Source: Planctomycetota bacterium (GTDB lineage: Bacteria; Planctomycetota; UBA1135). From it: 64,000 nucleotides of DNA. The stretch lies in assembly GCA_024275135.1 (NCBI GenBank), contig JAJRZS010000022.1, positions 12,516 through 76,515 of the forward strand, in the 5' to 3' direction. This document shows positions 24,159 through 43,820 of this stretch, one piece after another. The position numbers and the translations under genes were made by a program. The notes under the pieces are model-generated. The model worked only from the letters and a program-made list of their open reading frames with translations, searched no databases and had not been told where the DNA came from. Position 1 is the first letter of the stretch. Each line of letters opens with the position of its first letter.

Positions 24159-24220
24159 GGATAGGGAGTGCTTGGATTAGAGCACCCCCTGCATGCTGTA
24201 ACAAGAAAACTTGCCGAAAC

Positions 24221-25165: not shown

Positions 25166-25202
25166 ACCAGATTTTAGCCGCGCGCTGCGTAGAATCCGCA
25201 CC

Positions 25203-28581: not shown

Positions 28582-30122
28582 AATTTTCACTCCTCTTTGG
28601 TTTATGCTGCAGTACCACTTTGGCCTGGGCGCAGCAACCGGAGCTGGCCGATGTTTTGGATACCATCACTGCCGAAGATTGCATGGCCAACGTCGAGGTC
28701 CTGGCTTCCCCTTCCATGACTGGGCGAGCCACCTTGAGCTCAGGCTTTTTGCAGGCGGCAGAAATGGTGGAATCCCAACTCAAGGCTTTGGGTTATGAAC
28801 CGGCAAATGGGGATAGTTACCGCATTTCTTTTAGCTTGAACTGTGTTGTGGCAGGTGAGGAGACGCATTTTGTTACTGCTGGGATTGAACAGGCAAAGCC
28901 CTGGCAATTGGAAAAGGATTTCGTGCCAGTGATTGGCAGTCGGGAACGGGACGCTCGCGGTGAGGCCGTGTTTGTGGGGTATGCCATCGATGCGAAGAAG
29001 GAACATTGGGTAGATTTGAAAAAGAAAGATGTGCGTGGAAAGATTGTCTTTGCCTTTACTCGAGAACCACGAGCCGACGACATAAAGGCACGCGCCTTCG
29101 ATGGGGCCAAGGCGACTCGCTATTCGGAGGTGAAGATGAAAGCTGATGCTGTGTTCGCGGCCGGAGGCTTGGCTTTGGTTTTGGTGCCTGATCCAGGTCT
29201 GGTCGCGAGCGAGGAGCAGCCACTTCCGAGCATGGTTCCCTTTGTCGATGCGCGCGGTGCTGGGGCGGTGGGTTTGCAACGGCAGATGAATTTTCCGGAC
29301 ATGCCCATCCTGAGTGTATCGCGCGCGGTGGCGGGAACGATTTTTGATACTGATTTGCGTGCTTACCACAAAACCATCGATAAGAAGAAAAAGCCCAAGT
29401 TATTGCGCACACCGAAGGGAATGGAAATCCAATTGGGGGTGGAATGGGCGTCGGCCGACCGTGAGGCTTTCAACCTTGGTGCCTTGTTGAAGGGCAGTGA
29501 GGAGAATGGGGAGTATCTTGTGCTGGGAGCTCATTTGGATCATGTTGGATTTGATGTGTTCCGCGATCAAATGCGCTTAACGGTGCGGCCTGGTGCCGAC
29601 GACAATGCCAGCGGCAGCGGAGCCTTGTTGGAAGTTGCGCAGGCTTTAGCTGGCACCCAACCGCAAACCAATATCTTGTTTCTTTGGTTTGCTGGAGAAG
29701 AGCTTGGTTTGTTGGGGTCGGCCGCTTATTGCCGAGACCCCTTGTTTCCGCATGAAAAAACCATTGCCATGTTGAATATGGATATGGTTGGTCGAGGCGA
29801 TAAACGCAAGGCGAATGTGGGGGGGATGTGGAGTCGTCCCAACTGGGAAAAGTTTTTGAAAGAACAACACAAGCGTATCAAAAGCCCATTGCGCATGGAT
29901 TACAAGCAGGGACGCGATCTGTATGCACGTAGTGACCAATATAGTTTTCATCAAAAAGGGGTGGTTGGCCTGTTCTTTTTTGAAGCCGACCTCAACTCCA
30001 ATAAGGTCTATCACCAACCTGGAGATGTAGCCGACACCATGAACGGAGAAAAAATGGCGTTGATTGCGCGCTTGTTCACAGCTTGTGCCTGGGCGCTTGC
30101 TTACGAGGGGGTACGTCCTTGA
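28578..30122 (+). CDS. secreted M28-family aminopeptidase with PA domain
   Basis: Signal peptide MKFSLLFGLCCSTTLAWA, then LVLGAHLDHVG, GADDNASGSGALLE, FLWFAGEELGLLGS and MLNMDMVGRG, the M28 metal-ligand blocks. ATGA overlap with the galE stop. Confidence 0.8.
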   Translation: MKFSLLFGLCCSTTLAWAQQPELADVLDTITAEDCMANVEVLASPSMTGRATLSSGFLQAAEMVESQLKALGYEPANGDSYRISFSLNCVVAGEETHFVTAGIEQAKPWQLEKDFVPVIGSRERDARGEAVFVGYAIDAKKEHWVDLKKKDVRGKIVFAFTREPRADDIKARAFDGAKATRYSEVKMKADAVFAAGGLALVLVPDPGLVASEEQPLPSMVPFVDARGAGAVGLQRQMNFPDMPILSVSRAVAGTIFDTDLRAYHKTIDKKKKPKLLRTPKGMEIQLGVEWASADREAFNLGALLKGSEENGEYLVLGAHLDHVGFDVFRDQMRLTVRPGADDNASGSGALLEVAQALAGTQPQTNILFLWFAGEELGLLGSAAYCRDPLFPHEKTIAMLNMDMVGRGDKRKANVGGMWSRPNWEKFLKEQHKRIKSPLRMDYKQGRDLYARSDQYSFHQKGVVGLFFFEADLNSNKVYHQPGDVADTMNGEKMALIARLFTACAWALAYEGVRP

Positions 30123-31516
30123 TGCTAGGGGTTTGCGCGGCTTTTCTGTGTTTGACTTGGCAAGCTACCGCGCCGACGGCCTCGTCACCCTTGGACGCTA
30201 TCCTGCAACCAGTGGATGCGGAAGCCAATTTGGAGATTAGCGTGCATGTGGAGCTACTGGATGGCACCGTGCTCTATGATTTTCAGGGGCAAGATAAAAA
30301 ACGATTGGCCTCCAACAATAAGTTGTTTACCACGGCGGCCGCCTTGCTGGCACTAGGCCCCGAATACCACTGGCATACCCAGGTTTTTCTGGACGAGGAT
30401 GTGTTGCAGATTGTGGGGGGTGGAGATCCTTCTTTGCGTCGCTTAGGAGAACGCGATGCTGGTGCCGAATTTCTGGATGCTTTGGTTCAGCGTTTGCGTG
30501 CGCGAGGTGTGACGGAGTTGTCTCGCCTAGAGGTGGATTTTCACTATTTCTCTCCTCCGAGCCGTCATCCGCAGTGGCCACAAGACCAGTTACAACAAGT
30601 CTATTGCGCTCCGTTGAGCGCATTTTCGGTGGCTGGTGGGTGTGTCGAAGTCGTCCGCGAGAGCGGCAAGGTTTTTTTGCAACCGCTGGTTGGCGCTGGC
30701 ATGCGTTGGCATTTCTCAAAATCCAAGGGCAAACAGTTTTCTGCCTGGTGGGGTAGCCAAAGCCAACAATTGGTGGTGGCTGCCGGCCAGGATTCTCGCG
30801 ACCAAAAGCTGCGACTCGCGGTTCAGGATCCCTACCTTTTTTCCATGGCTTGGCTGCAAACGGGGCTTCAGCAGCGAGGGATTTCTGTTCAAAATGTAGA
30901 CTCCAGCCAACTCCATGAGCAAGTGGGACCGTTGTTGCTGAACTGGGAGTCGGTGTGGTCTTTGGCCGAGGTTTTGGTGGTGACGAACAAAAAGAGCGAT
31001 AATTTTTTGGCCGAAACTTTATTCCTTACTTTAGGTCAAGAACAGTTTGGGCAAGGAGATTTTGCCCATGGCGCCCAGGCTGTGAAACAAGTGCTGACGG
31101 AACAGTTTGCGCATACTTGGTCTTTTTCCCAAGCCGATGGCTCTGGCTTAGCCCGCTCCTCCCACACCGACTTGAACACGGCCACCGCACAAGAGCTTTG
31201 CTTGTTGTTGCGTGAAATGGCGGAGCGGCCCCAGGGTGCTTTGTTTTTCGATACCCTGCCCGTGGCTGGGGTGGAAGGACGCTTGGCTCAGCGTTTTACC
31301 GAGCCCATTTTTCAACCTCAGCGCGTGCATGCAAAAACCGGGTTCATTCGCGGCGCCAGTTCTCTGAGCGGCTATTTGCTGCTGCCGGATGGGCAAGTGG
31401 CCGTTTTTTCCTTTTTGGTGAACTTCGATCCAGCTAAAAACAAAAACACCAACAATCGACGTTTCAAGCGTTTGCAGGAAGACTTCTTGGCTGCACTTCT
31501 TCGCCTTTCTTCATGA
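30122..31516 (+). CDS. dacB: D-alanyl-D-alanine carboxypeptidase/endopeptidase (PBP4, peptidase S13)
   Basis: SxxK in ASNNKLFTTAAAL, GGGDPSL, DGSGLARS, HAKTGFIRGASSLSGY (KTG). TGATG overlap with the upstream stop. Confidence 0.8.
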   Translation: MLGVCAAFLCLTWQATAPTASSPLDAILQPVDAEANLEISVHVELLDGTVLYDFQGQDKKRLASNNKLFTTAAALLALGPEYHWHTQVFLDEDVLQIVGGGDPSLRRLGERDAGAEFLDALVQRLRARGVTELSRLEVDFHYFSPPSRHPQWPQDQLQQVYCAPLSAFSVAGGCVEVVRESGKVFLQPLVGAGMRWHFSKSKGKQFSAWWGSQSQQLVVAAGQDSRDQKLRLAVQDPYLFSMAWLQTGLQQRGISVQNVDSSQLHEQVGPLLLNWESVWSLAEVLVVTNKKSDNFLAETLFLTLGQEQFGQGDFAHGAQAVKQVLTEQFAHTWSFSQADGSGLARSSHTDLNTATAQELCLLLREMAERPQGALFFDTLPVAGVEGRLAQRFTEPIFQPQRVHAKTGFIRGASSLSGYLLLPDGQVAVFSFLVNFDPAKNKNTNNRRFKRLQEDFLAALLRLSS

Positions 31517-32367
31517 ATACCAATCCCCAACCCTGCCCCGAACTTGCTGTTGTCGAAACCATTGCCAAGGAAGCAGGCGAGATTTTGTTGCAGTGGAGTG
31601 GCAAACTTGCCGCGGAGCAAATTCAATCGAAAAGTGCGCAGCGAGATTTAGTGACCGCAGCAGATTTAGCAAGCGAAGCTTTTTTGGGCAAAGCCTTAGA
31701 AAAACATTTTCCGGGACAAGCTTTGTTGGCGGAGGAGGGCGTTGTGGATGGCAATCTGGATTTGCATGCCGAGACTTTGTGGTGCGTGGATCCACTAGAC
31801 GGCACGGTGAATTTCGTGCATCAATTGCCAATGTTTGCGGTTTCCATTGCGCGCTTGCGGCATGGTGAGCCCGAACTTGCGGTGGTCCATTTACCGCGAC
31901 TCGGGGAAACCTTTTCTGCCCGGCGCCAGGGCGGGGCCTATCTGAATGGGCAGGCGCTTCAGGTGTCGGCGGCAAAATCCACAGAAGATGCTTTGTTAGC
32001 CACAGGCTTTCCATACCGACGCCATTTATTGGCCGACAACAATCTCGAGAATTTTTGTCGTTTGTTTTTGCACCAACGGGGTATTCGACGTATGGGGTCG
32101 GCGGCTATTGATTTGGCCTATGTTGCCGCCGGGCGATTGGATGGTTTTTGGGAATTGCATTTGTCGCCCTGGGATGTCGCCGCTGGAGGCTTACTAGTGC
32201 AGGAAGCTGGAGGCGTGGTCGACACCATGCGATCGGGTGGAGATTGGTTGTTTGGGCGCAACTTGTTGGCGGGCTCTACCGCCCTGGTCGCTGATTTGCG
32301 CAGCCGTTTGCTGGCAGGACAGGGAGAGGATTTCCCCAATCTTGGTGATCGTTTGCAGTCGTCATGA
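31513..32367 (+). CDS. suhB: inositol monophosphatase family protein
   Basis: LAEEG, WCVDPLDGTVNFVH, and WDVAAGGLLVQEAGG motifs. ATGA overlap with the dacB stop. Confidence 0.85.
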   Translation: MNTNPQPCPELAVVETIAKEAGEILLQWSGKLAAEQIQSKSAQRDLVTAADLASEAFLGKALEKHFPGQALLAEEGVVDGNLDLHAETLWCVDPLDGTVNFVHQLPMFAVSIARLRHGEPELAVVHLPRLGETFSARRQGGAYLNGQALQVSAAKSTEDALLATGFPYRRHLLADNNLENFCRLFLHQRGIRRMGSAAIDLAYVAAGRLDGFWELHLSPWDVAAGGLLVQEAGGVVDTMRSGGDWLFGRNLLAGSTALVADLRSRLLAGQGEDFPNLGDRLQSS

Positions 32368-35300
32368 GCGCCAATTCGATTCGTTTGCGCGGCTTACGTG
32401 CTGGCAACTTGAAAAATTGGAATTGCGAGCTTGCACGAGGTGCGTGGACGGCAATTTATGGTGCCAGTGGGGCTGGCAAAAGTGCTTTGCTGTTTGGCAT
32501 CCTGGAGCCGACTTCGCGCCGCCGCTTCCAAATTTTACAAGACCCGCAATCGCTGCCTGGAAAAGAGGAAGATTGGCTGCAACCCCTGGCTGATGCGGTG
32601 GAGGGCTTGGATCCAGTCATTGCTTCTGCCGGAGAAATACCACGCCGGCGAAAAAAGCAAACCTTGGCTACTGTTCTCGATTTGTTGCCCTGGTTGGAGG
32701 CTGCGTGGAAACTTGGTGGACAATATCGTTGCCTGGGCTGTCAGCATGTTTGGCGCCCGTTGCAGGTGGAAGACCTTTTGCAGCAAAGCCAAGCTTGGCT
32801 GCGCCGGGAAGTGGTGTTGGTGCTGGGTGCTGTTGAGGGAGAAACTCAAGCCATGGTGGAGGCGGGGTGGACTCGCTATTTGGTGGACGGACAGCTGTTG
32901 CGCTTGGAGGAGGCTCCAGCGCGATTTCCAGAAAACAGTTGGCTGTTACTCGATCGGTTTCGTTGGCAACCGGAGCAAGAATCTAGGCTTGCGGATGCCC
33001 TTGCCCTCGCTTTGGGGCGGGAGCAAAGTTTGCGCCTCATGGTGGGCCAACGCGATCAGGAATTTTCTGCAGCAGGTTGTTGTCCTCAATGTGGGCAGTT
33101 GCACCAAAGTCATTGGCAGCAGGATTGGCATCGACAATTGGATTGGCAGGACCGGGTGCTGGCTGGAAAAAGTTGGCGTACTTGGTTGCATTCTCCATTG
33201 GAAACTTGGCTACAACTGGACGCTGGCGGGCGACATCCGCGAGCGCGCAAGCGTTTGCAGTTGTTGCAGGAAACTGGGCTTGGCCATTTGGCGGCGGCGC
33301 GCTCCCTTGGCACCTTATCTTTGGGTGAGGCGCGTCGCTTGGAATTGGTTTCCTGGATGGCGCAGGTGCGGCGGGGGCAAACAGTGATCCTCGATGAGCC
33401 GGGCATGGGCTTGCACGGGAAGGAACGCAGCCACATCGCCGAGTTGTTGCACCAATTGGTCGACCAAGGAAATACCGTGTTGACGGCGGACCCGGCGCGC
33501 GAGTTTCTAGAGTCGGCTCACCATTGGTTGAAGTTGGGGCCAGGTGGAGGAGCTGAGGGTGGACGGCTGGTAGGGCAAGGCACCCGCGCTGATTTGGAGG
33601 AGGAATCTTGGCAAGCGGATGCGGTGTCCGCCCATGGAGAAACGCCAACTTTGGAATTTCAGAACTTGCGAGAGCGGTTTTTGGACATTTCCCACTGCAC
33701 GGTACCCTTGCAGCAAGTCGTTGTTTTTTGTGGGGTTTCTGGAAGTGGCAAAACCACCTTACTTGAGCAGGAATTGCTGCCAAGGTTACGCCGCGAGGAA
33801 GGTGTTCAAGGTCCCATTCCTTCTGGCGGAGTGCATTCTTTGTTGCAGCGTTCCCTGCGCTGGTCTGCGATGAGTACGGTGGCAACTTTAGCCGGCGTTT
33901 GGCAAGAAATTCGGGCTGCCTTTGCTGCAAGCGAAGAGGCAAGGATGCGTGGCTTGGGAGCTGGCGACTTGGTTGCGCAAAAGGGACGTGGTGCTTGCCT
34001 TCCTTGTGGTGGCCGTGGGCAGGATGAGCATCATCTTCCCTGTGCAGAATGCTCTGGTCTTGGGCTGCGACCAGACTTGTTGGATTTGCGGTTGCGCAGT
34101 CGATCTTTGGCTTCTTGGTTGAGCACTCCGCTGAAGCAATTGGAAAAACGTCTACCCGCGCGCGGACGCCTTGCCAAAACTGTGAAGCACTTAATCGCCT
34201 TGGGCTTGGGCAATCGCTGCTTGGGGGAACGTGGACGCATTTTGTCTTTGGGTGAGCGCGGACGCATCGCCTTGGCGCGGGTGCTGTCGATGGCCAACCC
34301 CGCTTCTCCGAAGTTGTTTTTGCTTGACGAGCCATGTTTGGGGTTGCCGGTGCAAGAAGCGCGAAAGGTGATGCAGTTGCTGCGTAACCTTTGCGCCGAG
34401 GGGCATAGCTTTTGGGTAGTGGAACACCACGAATATTTTTTGCGTTCAGCAGATTGGATGTTGGAGTTAGGTCCTGGCGCCGGCCGGCTTGGTGGCCAAT
34501 TGGTGTTTGCTGGCACACCCCATGCGGTCGAGGAGGGCTCTACAGCAACCGGCATTTGGTTACGACAAAGGCGGCAAAAAACCAAGTTGCCCCCGCCGCC
34601 ACCGAAGCCCGCAGTCGCTTCCAGTCGCTGTGTGGATGCGGACAACCCTGGCCGTGGTCGCGCCTTGCTTCAGGCAGCTTTAGGGCGGGAGTTGGCCATG
34701 CGCAGCCCCTTGCTGAATGATCTTCTGGGAGCTGAAGAAGACATCGAGAGCAAAGAGGAGGAAGCTTGGATGCCATCGGCATGGCCGACTTTGCCCAAGC
34801 GGGGCGTGAGCTTGAGCCAAGTTTTGGGCTTGGAGCCCATTTTTCGCAACTATTGGCAAAGGTATGGCAAGCAAGTGTGCCCGTCCTGCGGAGGCGAAGG
34901 CCCTTGGTCGAGTTTTGAACAAGCAGCGGCGGCTTGTGGCGGGGAAGAAGTGGTCTTGACCACCCCACTGGCGGCGCAAATCTTGCAGAAAACGGAACAT
35001 CCGGCCTGGTTGTTGGCTGCTGGTTTTCGCCGCTTTGTGCGTGCAGGCCAATTGATTCGCTGGGGTGCCGAAGGTCCTACTCGATTGAGGGAGGGGGATT
35101 TGGTGTGGTTAGATCGTTGGAGTCCGGAAGACCCGGTTGGAGTGGGGGCTTGGCGCGACGTCGCCCATCATGCGCAGTTGTTGGGCCAAGGCGTGGTTCA
35201 AGCTTGGGATGTTTCTTTGCAAAACTTGTTATGGCAGTACCAACCGGATACTTGTCGTCAATGTGGCAAAAAAAGTTTGGGCTACGAACAGAGGTTGGGC

Positions 35301-36338
35301 CCCATGTCGACCATTATGCGCGAGCAAGCTAGCTTGGAAGAGGTTTGCCAGCTTTGCCTGCAACATCAACCGCAAAAGCAACTGCAGAATGCTTGCGCCT
35401 TGCTTGCTGGGAGTGGTTTGTTAGCCAAACCGACGGGCCATCGTTTTGCCGCCCTAACCGAATTGGAGCAGCGCTACGCACGCTGGGTGGGCTGGGTATT
35501 GCATCCCCTTCCCGAGGTGGTTTTGCTGGCGGATCAACCCCTGGCGGGTTTGCCCCAGGCCTTGGCCCTACGCTTGGGGAAGGCCATGTTGGATGGGCCT
35601 GGGGTGTTCCATTTCACCGATGCAGAAGCTTGGCTGGAGGAAAAACCCAATGCCATCGAATCGTTCCCGGTTCAACCAAAGGAGGCGAGCTTGGCTTTGG
35701 CTTTGGATTCCTGGTGCGTGCCCCAACGAGCGGCCATGGAGGCCAATTTGCGTGAAGCCTTGGGCTTAAAAGAGGGTTTGGCCTCCTACTACCAGCGCAG
35801 CGAACAAGCCAGGCTCCGCGGCTGGAAGATAGAAGAATTCTTCCCAGAAAAATCGAGCTTTGCCTGCCCTCATTGTCGTGGCAGAGGACGTCATTGGCCC
35901 CATCCAGAGCTAGCTTTGGACTGCCAATTCTGTCATGGCTCTGGCTGGACTGGCGCCTTAAGTCTTTTGGAGGAAGAGGGGTTACGGTGGATGGATTTGG
36001 GCCAGCAACGGCTTGGCCAGCTGCGTCAAGCCTTTGCCGAATACCCGCCTTTGGGAACGGTCTTTGCCTGGGCGGAAAAGCTGGGCTTGGGTGAATTCCT
36101 GCTTGACGCACCTTTGACTCAATTGCCCTTTGGAGTGCGAATGTTGGCACCCCTTGCTCAGGAGCTGGCCCTACACGAACGCGGAGAAGGGCGTCGTGTG
36201 GAGTTTCGGCTGGCTTTTGCCCTTGCTGGCTGGAATCGCTTGGAGGCTGCGCCTATTTCGTCTAGAATTGCAGGCTTCCCCTCTGCCCATTTGGGCCTTG
36301 AATGGAGGGAACATCATCCCCTGTTTGCTTCTCGGTGA
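32364..36338 (+). CDS. UvrA-like tandem ABC ATPase, 1324 aa, with a degenerate C-terminal UvrA-like extension
   Basis: N-terminus IRLRGLRAGNLKNWNCELARGAWTAIYGASGAGKSALLF parallels the UvrA start. Walker A at aa 33-40 and 457-464, signatures LSLGEARRL and LSLGERGRI, Walker B VILDEP and LFLLDEP. CxxC pairs at 123/126, 240/243, 545/548 and 560/563, with more in the tail. ATGA overlap with the suhB stop. Confidence 0.8.
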   Translation: MSANSIRLRGLRAGNLKNWNCELARGAWTAIYGASGAGKSALLFGILEPTSRRRFQILQDPQSLPGKEEDWLQPLADAVEGLDPVIASAGEIPRRRKKQTLATVLDLLPWLEAAWKLGGQYRCLGCQHVWRPLQVEDLLQQSQAWLRREVVLVLGAVEGETQAMVEAGWTRYLVDGQLLRLEEAPARFPENSWLLLDRFRWQPEQESRLADALALALGREQSLRLMVGQRDQEFSAAGCCPQCGQLHQSHWQQDWHRQLDWQDRVLAGKSWRTWLHSPLETWLQLDAGGRHPRARKRLQLLQETGLGHLAAARSLGTLSLGEARRLELVSWMAQVRRGQTVILDEPGMGLHGKERSHIAELLHQLVDQGNTVLTADPAREFLESAHHWLKLGPGGGAEGGRLVGQGTRADLEEESWQADAVSAHGETPTLEFQNLRERFLDISHCTVPLQQVVVFCGVSGSGKTTLLEQELLPRLRREEGVQGPIPSGGVHSLLQRSLRWSAMSTVATLAGVWQEIRAAFAASEEARMRGLGAGDLVAQKGRGACLPCGGRGQDEHHLPCAECSGLGLRPDLLDLRLRSRSLASWLSTPLKQLEKRLPARGRLAKTVKHLIALGLGNRCLGERGRILSLGERGRIALARVLSMANPASPKLFLLDEPCLGLPVQEARKVMQLLRNLCAEGHSFWVVEHHEYFLRSADWMLELGPGAGRLGGQLVFAGTPHAVEEGSTATGIWLRQRRQKTKLPPPPPKPAVASSRCVDADNPGRGRALLQAALGRELAMRSPLLNDLLGAEEDIESKEEEAWMPSAWPTLPKRGVSLSQVLGLEPIFRNYWQRYGKQVCPSCGGEGPWSSFEQAAAACGGEEVVLTTPLAAQILQKTEHPAWLLAAGFRRFVRAGQLIRWGAEGPTRLREGDLVWLDRWSPEDPVGVGAWRDVAHHAQLLGQGVVQAWDVSLQNLLWQYQPDTCRQCGKKSLGYEQRLGPMSTIMREQASLEEVCQLCLQHQPQKQLQNACALLAGSGLLAKPTGHRFAALTELEQRYARWVGWVLHPLPEVVLLADQPLAGLPQALALRLGKAMLDGPGVFHFTDAEAWLEEKPNAIESFPVQPKEASLALALDSWCVPQRAAMEANLREALGLKEGLASYYQRSEQARLRGWKIEEFFPEKSSFACPHCRGRGRHWPHPELALDCQFCHGSGWTGALSLLEEEGLRWMDLGQQRLGQLRQAFAEYPPLGTVFAWAEKLGLGEFLLDAPLTQLPFGVRMLAPLAQELALHERGEGRRVEFRLAFALAGWNRLEAAPISSRIAGFPSAHLGLEWREHHPLFASR

Positions 36339-38026
36339 CCATCGGCAACCAACCCTTAATCCTCCAAAGCGATATGACCATCGTGGTGGAGACGGCGCAT
36401 CCTGATTTCGTGGCCATGCGCAATGGCTTGTTGCCGTTCGCCGAATTGGTGAAATCCCCGGAATATTTGCATACCTACCGCATCACTCCGGTGTCGGTGT
36501 GGAACGCTGCTGCGATTGGCCTGGATGCCGAACAGGTGCTCAGCTTTTTGGCCGCCAATGCGCGCTATGGCGTGCCGAAGAATTTTGAGAGTGAAGTACG
36601 CACCTGGTTTCAGCGCTCAGAGGTTTTCCAGTTGCATGCGGAGGATGGAGACACGCTGCGCTTGGAAGCCAAGGAGCCGCAGGTTTTGCGAGATCTCTAC
36701 CATGATCCCGATTTGGCAAGTCTGTTATTTCAAATCGAAGAACAACAAGGCCGGGCTTGGTTGCGCAAAGCAAAGCGAGGCTTGGTTAAAGAGCGCTTGA
36801 TGAAGCTGGGGTATCCAGTTCAGGATTTGGCAGGCTATGTGGAAGGCTCAGCTTTAGCCATCCAATTGCGTTCGCAATTAGAAAGCGGACAAAGTTTCGG
36901 TTTACGGCCTTACCAGGAAGAAGCGGTGGAAAGTTTTCACCATCAGGGGCGTGCCGATGGTGGCAGTGGGGTTGTGGTGTTGCCTTGCGGTGCAGGCAAA
37001 ACCGTTGTCGGTTTGGCGGCCATGGCTGCGGTGGGGGCACACACCTTGATTCTCACCCCCAACACGGTGGCTTTAAGACAATGGCGTCGAGAGTTGTTGG
37101 AAAAAACCCATCTGCAACCGGAACAAATTGGCGAATACTCTGGGGAAGTCAAAGAGATACGGCCAGTTACGCTGACCACCTATCAAATCCTCACCTATCG
37201 TAAGGAAAAGGGCGGAGACTTCCTGCACTTTGATCTTTTCTCCAAGGGCGATTGGGGTCTTATCATCTATGACGAGGTGCATTTGTTGCCAGCACCGGTA
37301 TTTCGTGCTACCGCAGAGATTCAAGCGCGTCGCCGTCTTGGCCTGACCGCCACCTTGGTGCGGGAGGACGGCAAAGAAGACGAAGTCTTTTGCATGATTG
37401 GCCCCAAACGCTACGACGCACCGTGGAAAGATTTGGAGCGACGAGGGTTTATCGCCGCTGTTTCTTGCCTGGAAGTTCGTGTGCCAATGGAAGAAGATTT
37501 GCGATTGCAGTATTTGGCCGCGAAAAAACGGACTCAGTTCAGGCTGGCCAGTGAAAATCCCTCCAAAACTGATGCCTTGTTGGCCTTGTTGCAAAAGCAT
37601 GAAGGCGAGCGGATTTTAATCATTGGGCAATACCTGGACCAACTGCGTGCTTTGCAAACCGAACTCCAGGTGCCGTTAATCACCGGGCGCATGCCCAATC
37701 CGGATCGCGACCGCCTATACCAAGCCTTTCGCGATGGGGAAGAAACCGTCTTACTTGTCTCCAAAGTAGGCAACTTTGCCATCGATTTGCCGGACGCCAA
37801 CGTCGCCATCCAGATTTCTGGCACTTATGGCTCCCGCCAAGAAGAGGCACAAAGATTGGGGCGCATTCTGCGGCCAAAGTCGGATGGACGGGGCGCCACT
37901 TTTTACACCCTGGTCAGCGAAGGAACTGTCGACCAAGACTTCGCCGAGAAGAGGCAGCGTTTCTTGGCCGAACAGGGATATGCTTATCAGATTGTACCCG
38001 CCCATCAATTGATGCCTTCCAACTAA
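36335..38026 (+). CDS. xpb: XPB/Rad25 (ERCC3)-type SF2 DNA helicase
   Basis: XPB N-terminal domain (PLILQSDMTIVVE...HTYRITPVSVWNAAAIGLDAEQV). Motif I LPCGAGKT (36983-37003), motif II DEVH (37271-37282), XPB-specific RED motif in TLVREDGKEDE (37361-37369), and motif VI QEEAQRLGRILR. A GTG at 36335 overlaps the upstream TGA (GTGA). The track ATG is at 36302. An ATG at 36374 would truncate the conserved N-terminus. Confidence 0.85.
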   Translation: MTIGNQPLILQSDMTIVVETAHPDFVAMRNGLLPFAELVKSPEYLHTYRITPVSVWNAAAIGLDAEQVLSFLAANARYGVPKNFESEVRTWFQRSEVFQLHAEDGDTLRLEAKEPQVLRDLYHDPDLASLLFQIEEQQGRAWLRKAKRGLVKERLMKLGYPVQDLAGYVEGSALAIQLRSQLESGQSFGLRPYQEEAVESFHHQGRADGGSGVVVLPCGAGKTVVGLAAMAAVGAHTLILTPNTVALRQWRRELLEKTHLQPEQIGEYSGEVKEIRPVTLTTYQILTYRKEKGGDFLHFDLFSKGDWGLIIYDEVHLLPAPVFRATAEIQARRRLGLTATLVREDGKEDEVFCMIGPKRYDAPWKDLERRGFIAAVSCLEVRVPMEEDLRLQYLAAKKRTQFRLASENPSKTDALLALLQKHEGERILIIGQYLDQLRALQTELQVPLITGRMPNPDRDRLYQAFRDGEETVLLVSKVGNFAIDLPDANVAIQISGTYGSRQEEAQRLGRILRPKSDGRGATFYTLVSEGTVDQDFAEKRQRFLAEQGYAYQIVPAHQLMPSN

Positions 38027-38030
38027 AACG

Positions 38031-40025
38031 ATGACATCCATCAACCTTGCCCGCACTTTGGCGAAGCGTTCAGAAAGCGAACTTATCGATCTGCACGACC
38101 GCTGGGTCGGCGGCAATCCACCGGCGCGTCGGGCCGAATTGGTGCAAGCCCTGAAGGAGCGCATGACCGACCCCGTTGCTGTCGGCAATCTTTGTTTTGG
38201 CTTGTATGGCGCTTTGGCTCCGGTTTTCCGTATTTTGAGTCAGCAAACCGGGGTTGGCATGGGGCTCGAAGACTTGCGTCAGGCGGCCAGGAAAGAGGGG
38301 GTTGCACGCCGCAGTGTGCGTCCTGCCCTGGTGGAACTGGTGAGTACGGGCTTGGTGGCCCAAGTCACCCCACGACAGCCTCACCAAGAAGGTGTAGTTT
38401 GGGGCATTCCCAAAGAAATGGGAGATGTCTTGCCAACGGCAGGTGCACCCGAGTTGGTGCGCAGTAGCCCCTTATCTTTGCGCGGCTGGCTTACCAAGTA
38501 TTACCAACGCAAAATGCCGGCGGCCATGGGCGGCGAGGCAGTGCGGAAGATGTACAACCTGCTTGCTGGCGAACAAGCCATTTTGTCGCGTGTTGCCAGC
38601 TTGGAAGAAGACTTTTTGCAGTTAGTGGAAAGCTTGGCCATGCGCTGGGGAGGAATTTTGCCAGTTGGCGATTTCGACAAACTTGGAAGCCCCTTCAAGC
38701 TGGAAGAGGTCGTGGCCCTATTGGAGAAAAATTCCCTCGGCAGCATGTTGGAGCTGAATCTGGAGCATGCTGGTATCCGGCAAAACGGTCGGGTGCTATG
38801 CCTGTTTCAAGAAGTGGTCGTGGCCATCTTGAAAAATGGTTCTTTGCATGGCGATCCAGATGCCGAATCCATTGCTTCTATTGGCGTGGATTTCGTGTCC
38901 AACTTTTCGCGTTTTGCTTCTTTCGTCGAAGGGGATACTGTGCGCTTTACGGTGCGCGGAACCATTTATAAAAGCACTGGCAAGCGGATTGCCGAACAAT
39001 TATTGCCGAACCCTGGTCGAGAGTTTCGTCGTTTTGAAATTCTAGAACTGGAATACCGATTTTCTTTGGCTTGCGGCTTTATTGATCGTACCGGAGAACG
39101 CAGTTTTCGTCTCACCCCGGCGGGCCAGAAGTTTTTGGGCATGACCTTGTTGGAAAAGCAACGTCTGATGTTGGATTGGTTCGTCGAAGATCGAGAGCTG
39201 CCGGGTGATTTGCGACATCAATTGCGGTTGCGGCGCACCACCTTGCGCTACATCAAGCGTTTGCAGCCCGAAGTTTGGTACGACGCGATGTTCTTGCCTT
39301 TCGTTGCCCGCAATCACCACCTTGCCGATCTCACTTCTTCGGAGATTGCGCAAGAGCGCGCATCGTCTTTTCCTGTTCGCTCTTCTGCCGATTTGCAGAG
39401 CTTGGCTTGGAATCTATTTATCTGGGTACGCAAGTATTTGTACCTGCTCGGCATTATTGATATGGCCTATGACTCCGCTGGGCGCGCAGTGGCCATTCGC
39501 TTAACGCGGATGGGGGCGGAATTGCTGGACATGATTCCGGGTCGCGAAATTGAAGGCAGTGGTCACTTGGTGGTGAACCCGGATTTTGAAGTGGTTTTAT
39601 TCCCCGATCGTCGGTCCCATGATTTGGTGTATCGTTTGGACCGATTCTGCGACCGAGAATTTACCGACTCTCTCTACCATTACCGCATCACCCCATCTAG
39701 TTTGCATCGCGCCTTGGCCGAAGGCATGAGGTTGGATCAAATCTTCCAACTATTGCAAGACCGCAGCCGTACTCCGTTGCCCCAAAACGTGATGTATTCC
39801 TTGGAATCTTGGGCGCGCAAAGGTGGACTCATTACTTTCAGTGAAGATGGACGGTTGATATGCGAGCAAAAAGAAGTGTTGGATCGCATCACCCTGCACC
39901 CTGAATTGCGTCAAGTTGGGTTTGAACGGGTAGACGATGAAACGGTACAACTTCACGGACGCGTCAGTTCTCAAGATCTTGCCGGTTGGGTGCGCGATTA
40001 CGGCGCGAGTTTGCGCTCCGCCTAA
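38031..40025 (+). CDS. XPB-associated partner protein: winged-helix-like repeats plus a C-terminal XPB-NTD-like (Helicase_C_3-type) domain
   Basis: Starts 4 nt after the XPB stop. C-terminal aa 511-625 (HLVVNPDFEVVLFPD...LYHYRITPSSLHRALAEGMRLDQIFQLL...PLPQNVMYSLESW) parallels the XPB N-terminus. No nuclease or ATPase motif seen. Confidence 0.7.
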   Translation: MTSINLARTLAKRSESELIDLHDRWVGGNPPARRAELVQALKERMTDPVAVGNLCFGLYGALAPVFRILSQQTGVGMGLEDLRQAARKEGVARRSVRPALVELVSTGLVAQVTPRQPHQEGVVWGIPKEMGDVLPTAGAPELVRSSPLSLRGWLTKYYQRKMPAAMGGEAVRKMYNLLAGEQAILSRVASLEEDFLQLVESLAMRWGGILPVGDFDKLGSPFKLEEVVALLEKNSLGSMLELNLEHAGIRQNGRVLCLFQEVVVAILKNGSLHGDPDAESIASIGVDFVSNFSRFASFVEGDTVRFTVRGTIYKSTGKRIAEQLLPNPGREFRRFEILELEYRFSLACGFIDRTGERSFRLTPAGQKFLGMTLLEKQRLMLDWFVEDRELPGDLRHQLRLRRTTLRYIKRLQPEVWYDAMFLPFVARNHHLADLTSSEIAQERASSFPVRSSADLQSLAWNLFIWVRKYLYLLGIIDMAYDSAGRAVAIRLTRMGAELLDMIPGREIEGSGHLVVNPDFEVVLFPDRRSHDLVYRLDRFCDREFTDSLYHYRITPSSLHRALAEGMRLDQIFQLLQDRSRTPLPQNVMYSLESWARKGGLITFSEDGRLICEQKEVLDRITLHPELRQVGFERVDDETVQLHGRVSSQDLAGWVRDYGASLRSA

Positions 40026-40654
40026 TGAAAACCAAACTCCCACCCCGTGGCGTATGGGCTATTGGCTCGGATTTGGCAGGGGTGGCCGGGATGAAGTGGT
40101 GGGCGGAAACGGCCTCTCCCGCCCAAGCCATGAGTTTGCGTCGCCCCTGTGGCTCCATTCGTCGATGGATGCAGGGTTGTGAGCAGGTGCGCAAACAAAC
40201 ACCCTTTTTGGCGCTTCATGGGTATGCAGATTTTGCGCTTGCGGTAGGGGCAGACGCCATCATTGCTGGTGTGCGTACTTTGCCCTTGCCGATTTACCGC
40301 CGGGCCTTTCCCCAACTCATGCTGGGGGCCTCCACCCATAGCAGCGAAGAGTTGCAGCGAGCGAAGGCGGAGGGCGCCGACTTTGCTTTTTTTGGACCGG
40401 TTTGGAATACGCCAGAAAAGGAGGGGGTATTGACACCGCGCGGCTTGGACCAGCTTGCAGCTGCCTGTCGCCTGGGCCTTCCCATTTATGCATTGGGAGG
40501 AATCCAAACTGTGGAGCAAGCCCTCGCCTGCATCAAGGCTGGAGCTCATGGTGTGGCGGTCTTAAGGCTTGCGCAGCAGGCCAAGGCTTTGCAAGAGATG
40601 GTGTTGGCGCTCAGTGAGGTGGCCAATGCACCCGATGCGCCAGAGGGGTGTTGA
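40025..40654 (+). CDS. thiE: thiamine-phosphate synthase family protein (ThiE-like)
   Basis: C-terminal two thirds fit ThiE (GASTHSSEELQRAKAEGADFAFFGPVWNTPEK...LPIYALGGIQ...AGAHGVAVL). The N-terminal third is divergent. TAATG overlap with the upstream stop. Confidence 0.7.
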   Translation: MKTKLPPRGVWAIGSDLAGVAGMKWWAETASPAQAMSLRRPCGSIRRWMQGCEQVRKQTPFLALHGYADFALAVGADAIIAGVRTLPLPIYRRAFPQLMLGASTHSSEELQRAKAEGADFAFFGPVWNTPEKEGVLTPRGLDQLAAACRLGLPIYALGGIQTVEQALACIKAGAHGVAVLRLAQQAKALQEMVLALSEVANAPDAPEGC

Positions 40655-41096
40655 GGTGAAGCTCTTGCGGGAGCTTCCCGTCTTCCCCAGCACTGAGCAA
40701 AAAAGGAGTCTGCTGGCCATTGGCGGTGCCCAACAGCAAGACATAAGCATGGCCCCAAGGGTCGGTCGGCAGGTAGGTTTTGTCTGGGAGCAAGTTTTGC
40801 AACTCTGCTTGAGGCTTTGCCAATTTTAAGCCCTCAGGCAACTTTCCGGGGCCGACCCAGGGATAGCCTAAATCCTCAGGATTTGCCCAATTCCCTTGTT
40901 CCAAGCTCCAGTAAACCTGGCTGGCCAAGTAGGCGAGGGTATCGGCAGCCATGCGCATTTTGCCACGCTCCACTTCGGCATGCAGGGTGCCTACAATCGT
41001 GGCTACGATGACGCTCAACAACAGCAAAGTCCACAGCCATTCGCCACGGGTGAGCCCGTGTTGGTGGGAAGGTGAGGAGGCAGGAAGGAGGCGCAT
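40611..41096 (-). CDS. type II secretion/type IV pilin-like pseudopilin (GspG-like)
   Basis: Prepilin-like leader ...HGLTRGEW with Glu at +5 after Gly, a hydrophobic helix (LWTLLLLSVIVATIVG), and C-terminal DPWGHAY and SAGEDG as in GspG. The track ORF extends to 41129. The 3' end overlaps thiE by 44 nt (convergent). Confidence 0.6.
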   Translation of the reverse strand: MRLLPASSPSHQHGLTRGEWLWTLLLLSVIVATIVGTLHAEVERGKMRMAADTLAYLASQVYWSLEQGNWANPEDLGYPWVGPGKLPEGLKLAKPQAELQNLLPDKTYLPTDPWGHAYVLLLGTANGQQTPFLLSAGEDGKLPQELHLNTPLAHRVHWPPH

Positions 41097-41099
41097 GCG

Positions 41100-42023
41100 A
41101 TGAGTGGCTGGGGCGAAGAAAAGCTGCATGCCATTTTCCGTTCTTCCTTTGTCAGAAGGAAGGGGATTCTTGGCCCAGGTGAAGATTGTGCAGCCCTTGA
41201 GCCACCGCCAGGAGCGACCTTACTACAAACTGTGGATCAGGTTATCGGAGGGGTTCACCTGGAGGAGGATGCTCCTGCTGAGGTCTTTGCGCAAAAGTTG
41301 CTGCTGCGTAGCTTGAGCGATTTGGCAGCGGCTGGGGCCATTCCATGGTGTGTATCTTGGACCCTAGCAATCCCAGCCAATTGGGAGGCCAAGAAGGTGC
41401 AAGCCTTGGCCCATGCATTTTTGGCTACAGCCAGAGCATTCGATTTGCCGGTGGTCGGCGGAGATTGCAGCCAAGCACCGGTGGTGGTCCTCACCTGCAC
41501 AGCACTGGGTTTGGCTTCAGGGCCGGTTCCTGGTCGCGGAGGGGCGCAGCCTGGGGATGTGATTTGCGTGAGCGGAAGATTAGGGCATGCTGTGCGCAGT
41601 GGTGCCCACCGCTGCCCGCAACCACGCCTGCGCGAGGGGCAGCATCTGGTTCAACATTATCACCCGCATGCGATGATGGATTTGTCAGACGGGTTAATGC
41701 AAGATTTGCCGCGAATTTTACGTGCAAGCGGTGTGGGCGCTTGCGTGGAGCTTACGGACTTGCCCTTGCGCGATGGCTGCCCGGCCAATGAGGACAGTTG
41801 GCAATCGGCGGTGGCGGAGGGTGAGGATTATGAATTGCTGGCGGTTCTTGCTGCCGAGGAAGCAGAAAAAGCCGAGGACGATCCGATGTTGTCGGTGGTG
41901 GGGTTCACTGCGATTGGCAAGATCCAACGGCAGGCTGGGCTTGTTTGGTTGCAACGGGGAGAGGCCCGCACGCTAAAGGGTAAAGGATGGGAAGTGGAAT
42001 GGAGTTCGAGGTCTTGCCGTTAA
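41100..42023 (+). CDS. thiL: thiamine-monophosphate kinase
   Basis: GPGEDCAAL, DQVIGGVHL, GGDCSQAP, DLSDGLMQDL, EGEDYELL motifs. An AGGAGG Shine-Dalgarno lies 8-9 nt upstream. Confidence 0.85.
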   Translation: MSGWGEEKLHAIFRSSFVRRKGILGPGEDCAALEPPPGATLLQTVDQVIGGVHLEEDAPAEVFAQKLLLRSLSDLAAAGAIPWCVSWTLAIPANWEAKKVQALAHAFLATARAFDLPVVGGDCSQAPVVVLTCTALGLASGPVPGRGGAQPGDVICVSGRLGHAVRSGAHRCPQPRLREGQHLVQHYHPHAMMDLSDGLMQDLPRILRASGVGACVELTDLPLRDGCPANEDSWQSAVAEGEDYELLAVLAAEEAEKAEDDPMLSVVGFTAIGKIQRQAGLVWLQRGEARTLKGKGWEVEWSSRSCR

Positions 42024-42487
42024 CCATTCCCTCAGCCGAGCAAGCCGAGGCCTTCGGGCAACAGCTGGGGAAGCTGCTGCAGGGGGGAGATTGCATTGCC
42101 CTCATCGGGCCCTTGGGCAGTGGAAAAACCACCCTTTGCCGTGGCCTTGGGCGTGGTCTGGAAACCCAACAACCTCTGCGTTCCCCGTCTTATTTGCTTT
42201 GCCATGAGGTGGAGGGCAGGCATCCTGTGCTGCATTTGGACGCCTACTTTGCTGCGCGCATGGAGTCTTTGTTGATGGAGGGCTTGGCGCAACGATTCGA
42301 CTCCAAACATGTGTTGTTGGTGGAGTGGGCGGACCAACTGGTGGATTGGTGGCCGACAGACCGCCTGGAAATCCGCATCCAGGTTTTGCCCGCCGGGCGC
42401 CGCTTTTTGCTGCAGGCTTTGGGCCCGGTGGCGCAACAACGCCTCTTGCAGTTGAAAAATTGCGGGAATTTGGAGGTTTTCTCTTGA
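41987..42487 (+). CDS. tsaE: tRNA threonylcarbamoyladenosine biosynthesis protein TsaE
   Basis: P-loop LIGPLGSGKTTLCRGL, then SPSYLL and HLDAY as in TsaE/YjeE. An alternative start is ATG 41999 (MEFEV). Confidence 0.85.
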   Translation: MGSGMEFEVLPLTIPSAEQAEAFGQQLGKLLQGGDCIALIGPLGSGKTTLCRGLGRGLETQQPLRSPSYLLCHEVEGRHPVLHLDAYFAARMESLLMEGLAQRFDSKHVLLVEWADQLVDWWPTDRLEIRIQVLPAGRRFLLQALGPVAQQRLLQLKNCGNLEVFS

Positions 42488-42527
42488 ACCTAGCACCGTT
42501 GGGGCCGTTTTCCTGGAGACGCAACCC

Positions 42528-43783: not shown

Positions 43784-43820
43784 GAAGGAGGCCAACTTCT
43801 CTATCCTCAGCGCGTAGGAT

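Follow-up and report, generated by a model that had tools for sequence, protein, structure and literature searches.

The window, a stretch of 64,000 nucleotides of planctomycete DNA, carries three consecutive genes that encode a reduced tandem UvrA derivative, a bacterial XPB helicase and a p52/Tfb2-like partner. At a probability of about one half, we read them as a clade-specific operon core, uvrA-xpb-p52-like, that acts in a shared DNA-damage response in a planctomycete lineage including Engelhardtia mirabilis. All features described here lie on the + strand. Gene 1 extends from 32364 to 36338 (1324 aa), gene 2 from 36335 to 38026 (563 aa counted from its GTG; 36302-38026 if the upstream ATG is used) and gene 3 from 38031 to 40025 (664 aa). 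The TGA stop of gene 1 (36336-36338) is overlapped by the GTG at 36335, giving a GTGA junction (36335-36338), and the end of xpb at 38026 is separated from the start of gene 3 at 38031 by a 4-nt gap. Three co-directional genes with this overlap and gap had been proposed in the initial annotation, and both the open reading frames and the junction sequence bear this out. Alternative in-frame starts of xpb are the ATG codons at 36302 and 36374. The GTG start is supported by conservation: four related loci keep the residues PLILQSD, which lie ahead of the first internal ATG, in frame. The uvrA/xpb junction is GTGA or TTGA in loci with the reduced type of gene 1 (L001, L002 and L006, with NTGA) and a 4-nt overlap in L003, L087, L088 and L089.

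The cassette is joined just as closely to its flanks, which the initial annotation had missed. Upstream, the TGA stop of an inositol-monophosphatase gene (31513-32367; Pfam Inositol_P, E 8e-63) overlaps the ATG of gene 1 (ATGA, 32364-32367), an arrangement repeated in L002, L006, L088 and L089. Downstream, a TAATG overlap (40023-40027) connects gene 3 to a thiE-like gene (together 40023-40654; Pfam TMP-TENI). This coupling is as tight as the cassette's own, and thiE follows the partner gene in L001-L006, L087 and L088. The composition of the cassette is the same as that of its flanks.

Gene 1 had been described as a UvrA-like tandem ABC ATPase. Its UvrA identity was confirmed, but the protein is a reduced double UvrA and not a plain UvrA-like ATPase. 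It stays below both curated cut-offs for UvrA, with 289 bits for TIGR00630 (cut-off 730) and 281 bits for the other model (cut-off 1147). Unit 1 (aa 1-745; 32364-34598), delimited by hhalign and phmmer, retains both nucleotide-binding sites, a UvrB-binding-type domain, Zn1 and Zn3. The proximal site has a Walker A motif, GASGAGKS (aa 33-40; 32460-32483), and a Walker B motif, VILDEP (aa 341-346; 33384-33401); the lysine of the N-terminal Walker A is a marker of the UvrA proximal site (PMC6486640). The distal site has GVSGSGKT (aa 457-464; 33732-33755) and FLLDEP (aa 652-657; 34317-34334), the latter followed by an intact H-loop (VVEHHE). All four Walker motifs are conserved in the family, and the signature LSLGE occurs at aa 318 and aa 627. 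The Zn3 module (C545/C548 and C560/C563; 33996-34052) was recognised by its motif and by alignment to UvrA Zn3. The two intact Walker A/B sets and the CxxC modules claimed for the 1324-aa protein were thus located, with CxxC pairs at aa 123/240, 545/560, 839/964 and 1168/1187. The UvrB-binding-type domain (aa ~118-245; 32715-33098) is bordered by the Zn1 cysteines C123/C126 and C240/C243 and aligns with the UvrB-binding regions of double UvrA and Thermotoga maritima UvrA; the Pfam UvrA_inter match in gene 1 is sub-threshold (19.7 bits vs 23.3).

Unit 1 lacks the insertion domain and Zn2, an absence that had gone unnoticed. In hhalign with unit 1 of double UvrA (E 2e-110), about 150 aa are missing after aa 255-289, and in phmmer T. 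maritima UvrA (3pih) covers aa 4-244 and 294-725 of gene 1. The remaining scar (aa 255-289; 33126-33230) faces template-only segments of 74, 56 and 20 aa, the lost part being ~150 aa in UvrA, and contains no cysteines. Also overlooked was the degenerate proximal H-loop, VLTADP (aa 372-377; 33477-33494), which aligns with 'vivvehd' of T. maritima and has its histidine replaced by proline throughout the family. Because of this replacement, the proximal site probably binds ATP and would hydrolyse it poorly; the distal site appears to be a canonical ATP site.

A second, degenerate UvrA unit, likewise absent from the initial annotation, occupies aa ~800-1324. Together with its linker, which includes PPPPP at aa 743-747, it spans aa 746-1324 (34599-36335). 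Unit 2 matches unit 1 in hhalign (Prob 99.7, E 4e-25) and also the units of double UvrA (E 3e-25 and 4e-23). Its AF2 model (pLDDT 92.3, pTM 0.85) was compared with the PDB by Foldseek, and the best 38 matches are all UvrA (9gy7_A, E 6e-19; 3uwx_A, TM 0.70). It retains the UvrA fold, Zn3' and a second UvrB-binding-type domain, enclosed by the Zn1' cysteines. The Zn1' pairs (C839/C842 and C964/C967; 34878-35264) were assigned by family alignment and alignment to unit 1, and Zn3' (C1168/C1171 and C1187/C1190; 35865-35933) by alignment to the Zn3 of unit 1; these eight cysteines are invariant across 44 family members. It has lost the two Walker A motifs, the two H-loops and the insertion domain, and a degenerate, family-conserved Walker B, LLADQP (aa 1054-1059; 35523-35540), aligns with the UvrA DEP. 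Unit 2 is a pseudo-ATPase with a UvrA fold and no P-loops.

The ancestry of gene 1 can be read from its slot. In L003, L004 and L087, the position between the inositol-phosphatase gene and xpb is filled by a double UvrA of 1,929-1,957 aa, and a double-UvrA frame of 1,923-1,983 aa lies directly upstream of xpb in L007, L012, L013, L014, L017 and L068. These proteins match UvrA in two full stretches, score above the equivalog cut-offs, have UvrB-binding domains and contain four complete sets of motifs. The best alignments are colinear, unit 1 of gene 1 with unit 1 of double UvrA and unit 2 with unit 2. We conclude that gene 1 descends from the tandem double UvrA of the clade. Gene 1 is the positional orthologue of the planctomycete ~1,950-aa protein, as in E. 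mirabilis, and shares its two-unit layout, but is ~600 aa shorter. The two insertion domains of double UvrA are missing from it, and it has two P-loops, against four complete ATP-site motif sets in double UvrA. NCBIfam also curates a UvrA model of 1,809 positions, PRK00635. Like class I UvrA of the UvrABC system, gene 1 has an ABC-ABC architecture (in unit 1, where both sets of Walker A/B and signature motifs are present), a UvrB-binding-type domain with Zn1 and a Zn3 module, and both of its units have the UvrA fold. It differs from class I in the missing insertion domain and Zn2, in the proline of the proximal H-loop and in the fused second unit without P-loops. Class II proteins (UvrA2, Ecm16, DrrC) are likewise UvrA paralogues or derivatives that have shed some accessory domains (PMC10192343), but the pattern is the opposite one: in gene 1 the UvrB-binding-type domains and Zn1 remain, and the insertion domain and Zn2 are absent.

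With ATPase motifs and domains lost and a divergence faster than that of its neighbours (45-58% identity, where the neighbours on the same contigs have 52-79%), gene 1 might be taken for a decaying, pseudogene-like relic without function. This seems scarcely credible. Full-length homologues form 71 clusters, all from Planctomycetota and down to 32% identity, and as these keep an intact frame of ~1,320 aa (~4 kb) and conserved motifs, including the invariant cysteines of unit 2, gene 1 is, judged by its sequence, functional. The confidently predicted fold of unit 2 also speaks against decay. The faster evolution could mean relaxation and not a new role.

Gene 2 is a genuine bacterial XPB. Its NF045503 score of 827 bits exceeds the cut-off of 610, and it carries the RED motif at aa 343-345 (37361-37369), in agreement with the initial assignment. 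A Pfam Helicase_C_3 match (E 1.6e-25) marks the XPB N-terminal domain at 36356-36730, and the helicase core (36899-38011; Pfam ResIII, Helicase_C and ERCC3_RAD25_C) contains GAGKT (aa 219), DEVH (aa 313) and QRLGRILR (aa 506). The closest solved structures are eukaryotic XPB/Ssl2 (E 1e-87 to 1e-81). With the TFIIH enzyme, gene 2 shares the N-terminal domain, helicase core and RED motif.

Gene 3, named 'helicase-associated domain-containing protein' by NCBI, had been called p52-like on the basis of one repeated domain, a guess that has since gained backing. Its AF2 model is confident (pLDDT 84.2), and in Foldseek searches of the PDB the best 16 matches are all chains of TFIIH-containing entries (E 1e-8 to 8.5e-5), spanning 357-566 alignment columns; the assignment of these chains to p52/Tfb2 is ours, the output labelling only 2 of the 16 as p52 (6trs, a p52-p8 crystal structure). 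One chain, 7o4i_2, is named TFB2 in the profile-alignment step with human XPB. Weak Pfam Tfb2 matches occur in 11 of 43 members of the gene 3 family. By its predicted structure, gene 3 is homologous to TFIIH p52/Tfb2 over its full length. The repeat of the XPB N-terminal domain at its C-terminus, noticed earlier, was recovered by Pfam as a clutch-type domain (aa 513-634, 39567-39932; Helicase_C_3, E 2e-17) and aligns with the N-terminal domain of XPB in BLASTP (E 3e-10). In a profile alignment with human XPB residues 112-209, the threonine of a YRITP motif in the partner aligns with T119. In TFIIH, the XPB N-terminal domain pairs with the p52 clutch (10.1101/507723). As in TFIIH, the clutch of gene 3 is homologous to the XPB N-terminal domain, the T119-aligned threonine included. 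Gene 3 is the bacterial counterpart of p52/Tfb2. By analogy with TFIIH structures, its clutch most likely pairs with the N-terminal domain of XPB and would tune the XPB translocase. Unlike p52, gene 3 is ~200 aa longer, only 12-15% identical and below the Pfam Tfb2 threshold. Unlike in TFIIH, genes for p8, p34, p44, p62 and XPD were not found near the cassette, and its genes stand in an operon with a UvrA-type gene.

The distribution of these neighbours was surveyed in 80 GTDB XPB loci from many phyla, of which 65 could be assessed and 15 were too truncated to judge. The partner adjoins XPB on the same strand in 46 of the 80 loci and lies nearby in 5 more (51 of 65 assessable); in 14 loci whose flanks are complete it is absent. 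At E<=1e-10, the profile of the partner is matched by about 2,170 representative clusters. XPB and the p52-like protein thus form an autonomous two-gene module in many phyla. A UvrA gene adjoins XPB in only 8 of the 80 loci, all from Planctomycetota, and is in these a complete double UvrA of 1,920-1,985 aa, as in cultured E. mirabilis. No UvrA gene neighbours XPB in the other 72 loci, which belong to other lineages; every other phylum sampled has XPB and the p52-like gene without UvrA. In a neighbour-joining tree of XPB, the 17 sequences linked to UvrA group together to the exclusion of the others, and the 6 of the reduced type fall within this group, which shows that UvrA joined the XPB-p52 module once in this clade, co-transcribed and translationally coupled. 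The adjacency of the trio, first seen in the window, is conserved in related genomes across a deep clade (XPB down to 54% identity, partner down to 28%), also where the upstream flank differs (L087, L013, L017).

The initial annotation had proposed a hybrid surveillance machine. Its protein identities hold; the machine itself is argued from gene order, which housekeeping genes share. The cassette belongs to a longer conserved array in which unrelated housekeeping genes (inositol monophosphatase, thiE, thiL, tsaE) overlap one another; these are linked as tightly and conserved as deeply as the trio, and adjacency or overlap alone is therefore no proof of shared function in this clade. The adjacency of the trio is only suggestive of joint function. 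The genes may be neighbours by descent only, with gene 1 a streamlined excision-repair UvrA that loads UvrB, an independent XPB-p52-like pair and frozen synteny; we regard this as possible, though doubtful. Gene order is conserved across the clade over the whole block from an S13 peptidase gene to a sigma-factor gene, in which genes that are unrelated overlap at their junctions, and elsewhere the XPB-p52-like pair occurs alone. An ABC protein that is the only, canonical UvrA of its genome, with a UvrB-binding domain, had been named as a point against the hybrid machine. Bearing on this, both units of gene 1 retain UvrB-binding-type domains and Zn1, which fits continued work with UvrB, and the ancestral neighbour, still seen in sister lineages, is a double UvrA of canonical score; gene 1 itself is not. 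However, half of the ATP sites are gone, and if the sensor role had stayed the same, the loss of both insertion domains would be hard to explain. In UvrA, these domains provide major contacts with DNA (PMC7835731), and its homologue Ecm16 requires them to bind DNA (PMC10192343). Furthermore, the trio with its 4-nt overlap persists beside an unrelated upstream flank in L087, and it would be an unlikely coincidence that the sole conserved DNA-repair neighbour of an excision-repair-type helicase is the excision-repair sensor.

On our preferred reading, the trio most likely acts in the same DNA-damage response, with a UvrA-type sensor and XPB-p52 as the motor for opening or remodelling DNA. Given its two-unit layout, with the ATP sites in unit 1 and a pseudo-ATPase in unit 2, gene 1 would most simply be a single-chain, asymmetric equivalent of the UvrA dimer that binds distorted duplex DNA via its signature-II/Zn3 elements. 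The sensor might pass DNA straight on to XPB-p52, or UvrB might still be the recipient. A stricter version, the initial proposal taken literally, in which the sensor has switched clients and loads XPB-p52 instead of UvrB in a physical three-part machine, would combine the logic of bacterial excision repair with that of its eukaryotic counterpart. It is consistent with the translationally coupled uvrA/xpb junction conserved across the clade and with the remodelling and faster evolution of gene 1 in a sub-clade in which XPB and partner stay conserved, the adaptor-type domains being among the better-conserved parts of gene 1. We consider it rather unlikely, as Pfam found no module like UvrB domain 2, which binds UvrA, in XPB or the partner, the three-gene cassette has no nuclease gene, and elsewhere the XPB-p52-like pair does without a UvrA neighbour.

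The suggestion of foreign-DNA surveillance could not be upheld. An anti-phage or foreign-DNA defence system of ABC ATPase, helicase and adaptor would be in line with PADLOC matches of gene 1 (mad3, 130 bits) and XPB (PbeA, 86 bits), but these are at superfamily level only, with no match for the partner and no complete system. The cassette sits in a conserved core-genome housekeeping array and does not differ from it in composition, the XPB tree indicates vertical inheritance, a search for relatives on viral contigs found none, and a patchy, island-like distribution was not seen. A defence role is very unlikely.

Among known prokaryotic XPBs, Mycobacterium tuberculosis XPB (Rv0861c) and other characterised bacterial enzymes belong to the same NCBIfam equivalog as gene 2. 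Published work on bacterial XPB concerns the helicase alone and mentions neither the partner nor a UvrA linkage (PMC3353954). In actinobacterial loci of our survey (L059, L060, L065, L081), a p52-like gene also adjoins XPB, but upstream of it. Archaeal XPB likewise has a dedicated partner encoded beside it, Bax1 (PMC7293015). Bax1 is a nuclease, whereas gene 3 has no nuclease domain and resembles p52, and archaeal XPB is a far weaker match to gene 2 than eukaryotic XPB (E 1e-45 vs 1e-87).

The three genes of the cassette are read from the same strand and follow each other closely. Gene 1, which encodes the UvrA-derived protein of 1324 aa, extends from 32364 to 36338 (+), and its TGA stop codon is overlapped by a GTG at 36335 (GTGA). 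Gene 2, encoding XPB, begins at 36302 or 36335 and ends at 38026 (+). A spacing of 4 nt separates it from gene 3 (38031-40025, +), which encodes the p52-like partner of 664 aa. The co-directional arrangement with a GTGA overlap and a 4-nt gap, proposed in the initial annotation, was confirmed by the ORFs and the junction sequence and could be sharpened with regard to the xpb start codon. Four related loci encode PLILQSD 5′ of the first internal ATG of xpb, in the same frame, and have uvrA/xpb junctions that read GTGA or TTGA; in more distant relatives, the overlap is 4 nt. The peptide and the NTGA junctions of the relatives support GTG 36335 as the start of XPB. ATG 36374 was ruled out because the conserved PLILQSD sits 5′ of it, and ATG 36302 is less likely since relatives begin at the NTGA overlap. 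Gene 1 in turn shares an ATGA with the end of the inositol-monophosphatase gene upstream of it, and thiE begins downstream within a TAATG at the gene 3 stop, so that coupling reaches beyond the trio. The cassette is part of an array (25137-43783) of about 15 packed co-directional housekeeping genes, many with stop/start overlaps of 1-4 nt (for example 31513-31516, 32364-32367, 36335-36338 and 40023-40027), whose order is kept across the clade even at merely 30-40% protein identity. The segment is chromosomal, with 53-58% GC and a composition that is unbroken at the cassette. Rfam and tRNA scans showed no RNA feature inside the cassette. A promoter and terminator scan of 24000-43900 gave counts not above those of shuffled sequence and is uninformative for this organism.

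Gene 2 scores 827.4 bits against the equivalog model NF045503 (repair_heli_XPB; cut-off 610) over model positions 1-548. It carries GAGKT, DEVH, RED and QRLGRILR, covering SF2 motifs I, II and VI together with the RED motif, and its Pfam domains are Helicase_C_3 (the N-terminal domain, NTD), ResIII and ERCC3_RAD25_C. The nearest solved structures are those of eukaryotic XPB/Ssl2 (E 1e-87 to 1e-81), with archaeal XPB at E 1e-45. By sequence, gene 2 is a bacterial XPB, a helicase whose role in bacteria has been described as elusive (PMC13024598).

The sequence of gene 3 alone reveals Helicase_C_3 at aa 513-634 and nothing else. This domain aligns with the XPB NTD (E 3e-10), and the clutch profile aligns with human XPB residues 112-209, including the Thr equivalent to T119. 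Conservation of this Thr between XPB and the clutch of p52 is reported by Greber et al. (10.1101/507723). A PDB search with the gene 3 sequence gave no match. With the gene 3 profile, matches were limited to the XPB NTD and to Tfb2 at E 0.12, and structure prediction was needed. The AlphaFold model of gene 3 (pLDDT 84.2) was compared to the PDB with Foldseek. The best 16 matches are chains of TFIIH-containing entries that were assigned to p52/Tfb2, among them the p52-p8 crystal 6trs, all with a probability of 1.0, 357-566 alignment columns and E-values of 1e-8 to 8.5e-5. XPB chains rank after these and are matched via the NTD only. TM-scores versus the p52/Tfb2 chains are low (0.16-0.31) because the domains are flexibly arranged. 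The model is predicted to combine a multi-winged-helix N-terminal region with the clutch domain, as in the p52 fold, followed by a putative short beta-beta-alpha-beta tail (aa 631-663). Pfam Tfb2 (PF03849) does not match gene 3 at E≤1, which leaves it short of the gathering threshold; weak Tfb2 matches occur in 11 of 43 members of the partner family (best E 9.3e-5). From the predicted fold, we conclude that gene 3 encodes a full-length p52/Tfb2-like protein that lies below the Pfam Tfb2 threshold. The initial reading of the second and third proteins, namely an XPB-type helicase with the RED motif and a p52-like protein whose C-terminus repeats the XPB NTD, is supported by these data. No p8, p34 or p62 genes are found near the cassette. 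One homologous protein, P0494 (1,346 aa), has four stretches that match the partner profile, with its clutch region at residues 990-1158; this member of the p52-like family may have arisen by fusion or by internal duplication.

Archaeal XPB is paired with Bax1, and gene 3 could accordingly be compared with this nuclease. Gene 3 differs from Bax1 in that Pfam finds no nuclease family in it, and the 50 Foldseek matches listed contain no chain of Bax1. The sole nuclease-family entry in the partner family is NucS_C, which 2 of the 43 members match without significance (E 0.2 or worse).

To survey the neighbourhood of bacterial XPB, GTDB species genomes were scanned with an XPB alignment, which yielded 80 loci from many phyla with 51-59% identity, and the partner gene was detected in them by an iterated HMM. 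In 46 loci, the p52-like gene directly adjoins xpb in the same orientation; in 5 it lies nearby, in 14 with full 10-kb flanks it is absent, and 15 further loci are too truncated to judge. The partner-less loci (L010, L011, L018, L020, L023, L027, L033, L036, L037, L042, L048, L052, L070 and L075) come from, among others, Leptospira, Hydrogenedentes, Brevibacillus and Nitrospirales. Either the partner, although frequent, is missing from some genomes, or its gene lies at another site there. At E≤1e-10, the partner profile recovers ~2,170 representative clusters, which are likely to include some XPB NTDs. The clutch is homologous to the XPB NTD, with which it would probably pair as in TFIIH; the two genes are neighbours in 51 of the 65 loci that could be assessed. 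The survey had been proposed in order to count both neighbours of XPB. It bears out the partner and not the UvrA-like gene. The latter adjoins XPB in Planctomycetota alone, at 8 of the 80 loci. In 6 of these 8, namely where the contig end does not cut the gene, it is a full-length double UvrA.

A widespread bacterial module of XPB and a p52/Tfb2-like protein is among the best-supported novelties of this work. In the literature searched, in which subscription journals are thinly covered, neither a bacterial p52 homologue nor a uvrA-xpb operon nor PF13625 has been described. The partner beside XPB in most sampled phyla is a concrete handle on bacterial XPB, which has probably been studied so far without its regulatory subunit. 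The XPB-p52 'clutch' of TFIIH could be examined in a simple two-protein bacterial system, and a bacterial p52 counterpart touches on the origin of the TFIIH core.

The product of gene 1 is more unusual than its UvrA-like appearance implies. It scores 288.6 bits versus TIGR00630 (cut-off 729.8) and 280.8 bits versus NF001503 (cut-off 1147), below the UvrA equivalog level in both cases, and the NCBIfam UvrA models cover aa ~1-740 only. Pfam finds only ABC_tran and a sub-threshold UvrA_inter, and an exact look-up of the protein returned no identical record. In an alignment with T. maritima UvrA (3pih), aa 4-244 correspond to residues 2-256 and aa 294-725 to residues 441-903, and the insertion-domain block is absent. 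Profile comparison with a double UvrA shows ~150 aa missing from unit 1 (aa 1-745) after a scar at aa 255-289, in which no cysteines are left for the zinc module Zn2, and 141 aa missing from unit 2 (aa 746-1324) at the insertion-domain position. There is no Pfam match to UvrA_DNA-bind. The UvrB-binding-equivalent region aligns well, and a UvrB-binding domain with Zn1 is predicted in both units at the level of sequence and fold. In unit 1, the Zn3 cysteines are C545/548/560/563; their counterparts in unit 2, C1168/1171/1187/1190, are invariant.

Unit 1 keeps both sets of Walker A, signature and Walker B motifs. The distal site is canonical. The proximal site, which in UvrA is defined by the N-terminal Walker A (PMC6486640), retains Walker A and B and has an H-loop that reads TADPARE family-wide, with His replaced by Pro. 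The C-terminal 580 residues have no Pfam match. By hhalign, unit 2 matches unit 1 (Prob 99.7, E 4e-25) as well as the two units of a double UvrA (E 3e-25 and 4e-23). Its AlphaFold model (pLDDT 92.3, pTM 0.85) finds UvrA structures for all of its best 38 PDB matches, with TM-scores up to 0.70. Profile and predicted fold indicate that these residues are a second UvrA unit. In this unit, neither site retains a Walker A motif or an H-loop, and the insertion domain is gone. The Walker B remnant reads DQP, and the eight Zn1/Zn3 cysteines of the unit are invariant among 44 sequences. The protein is therefore not a tandem of two complete UvrA units, since unit 2 is degenerate. The two Walker A/B sets and the UvrA-like identity assigned in the initial annotation hold, but the protein fails the UvrA cut-offs, and the altered proximal H-loop of unit 1 and the P-loop-less unit 2 go beyond that description.

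In class II UvrAs (UvrA2, Ecm16), the UvrB-binding domain is missing together with Zn1, and the insertion domain is retained (PMC10192343). Gene 1 shows the opposite pattern and does not belong with UvrA2, Ecm16 and DrrC. This single-chain asymmetric architecture, the inverse of class II, appears to be new, has no description in the same incompletely covered literature, and is likewise among the best-supported novelties. It offers a natural experiment on dispensable UvrA parts, with a putatively active unit fused to a P-loop-less one.

Full-length homologues of gene 1 form 71 clusters (32-58% identity, 1,260-1,380 aa), all from Planctomycetota metagenome-assembled genomes. Five loci (L001, L002, L006, L088 and L089) carry gene 1 in the identical slot, in the order S13 peptidase, inositol phosphatase, gene 1, XPB, partner, thiE, small minus-strand ORF, thiL, tsaE and sigma factor. 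In the sister loci L003, L004/L005 and L087, the slot holds a tandem UvrA of 1,929-1,957 aa that has a 4-nt overlap with xpb. These double UvrAs score 2027-2212 bits in two complete stretches, above the UvrA equivalog cut-offs, and in P0079, the one examined in detail, all four sets of ATP-site motifs are complete. Gene 1 is colinear with the double UvrA and positionally orthologous to it; the nearest relative of unit 1 is double-UvrA unit 1 and that of unit 2 is double-UvrA unit 2. Judged from the slot identity and the unit-by-unit match, the 1,324-aa gene 1 is an in-place reduction of the double UvrA. Double UvrAs of ~1,950 aa are common in a large planctomycete group, with at least 120 clusters ≥61% identical to the L003 protein. 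Among the best 120 double-UvrA matches (all ≥61% identity), no contig has a length that coincides with one in the list of reduced-type genes. Further double-UvrA loci are L007, L012-L014, L017 and L068. The locus of Engelhardtia mirabilis (L087, 10001-15790; CP036287.1) comes from a cultured organism with a complete genome, which opens the ancestral operon to experiment. When XPB sequences are placed in an NJ tree (without bootstrapping), the 17 that are linked to UvrA group together to the exclusion of all others, and the six of the reduced type fall within this clade, which argues that linkage and reduction each arose once. Where homologues of gene 1 and of the partner share a contig, identity to the respective window protein is 58, 57, 55, 46 and 45% for gene 1, compared with 79, 77, 72, 55 and 52% for the partner. 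The faster divergence of gene 1 is unusual for UvrA and would fit either relaxation or a changed role.

The adjacency of the trio is suggestive of a joint function. The overlapping uvrA/xpb stop and start is kept over a deep clade, the trio is intact in Engelhardtia mirabilis despite an unrelated upstream flank and a 450-nt gap before uvrA, and all three proteins fall within excision-repair themes. On the other hand, thiE, thiL and tsaE are linked equally, XPB and the p52-like gene occur elsewhere without a UvrA neighbour, the cassette has no nuclease, and gene 1 retains two UvrB-binding-type domains. Neither uvrB nor uvrC was found in the window or the fetched loci (the uvrB motif search covered 89 loci and the window). 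In its strict form, the 'hybrid machine' of the initial annotation is an improbable hypothesis. We give a probability of roughly one in five to a bacterial two-subunit 'mini-TFIIH', composed of XPB and a true p52/Tfb2 homologue, that would be recruited to lesions in one planctomycete clade by the asymmetric single-chain sensor derived from UvrA, in place of UvrB or in addition to it. If so, mini-TFIIH and its sensor would naturally combine the excision-repair designs of bacteria and eukaryotes in one hybrid, and the XPB-p52 partnership would be older than eukaryotes or donated to them. UvrA-type and XPB-type excision repair have been treated as unrelated systems (PMC6222260); a functional UvrA link would connect them. 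This link is testable, because the operon occurs in its ancestral form in an organism that is in culture, Engelhardtia mirabilis.

The role in foreign-DNA surveillance that had also been considered is unlikely. PADLOC returned ABC- and helicase-superfamily matches only, with none for the partner, and an anti-phage defence system was rejected on this ground. The matches do not come from the models of one system, the context is one of conserved housekeeping genes instead of a variable region or island, and no relatives of the partner or unit 2 were found on viral contigs.

Elsewhere in the window, thiC lies at the window start (205-1848), and no TPP riboswitch reaches the Rfam gathering score anywhere in the 64 kb, where tRNA-Leu(caa) (62693-62779) is the sole RNA gene found. 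Two long minus-strand ORFs encode a protein of 1,218 aa with TPR repeats only (8502-12158) and one of 577 aa without a Pfam match (14137-15870). Between thiE and thiL, a 172-aa ORF on the minus strand (40611-41129) shows a weak T2SSG/prepilin-like match (E 6e-4), and counterparts of similar size and position are present in L001, L002, L006 and L088.
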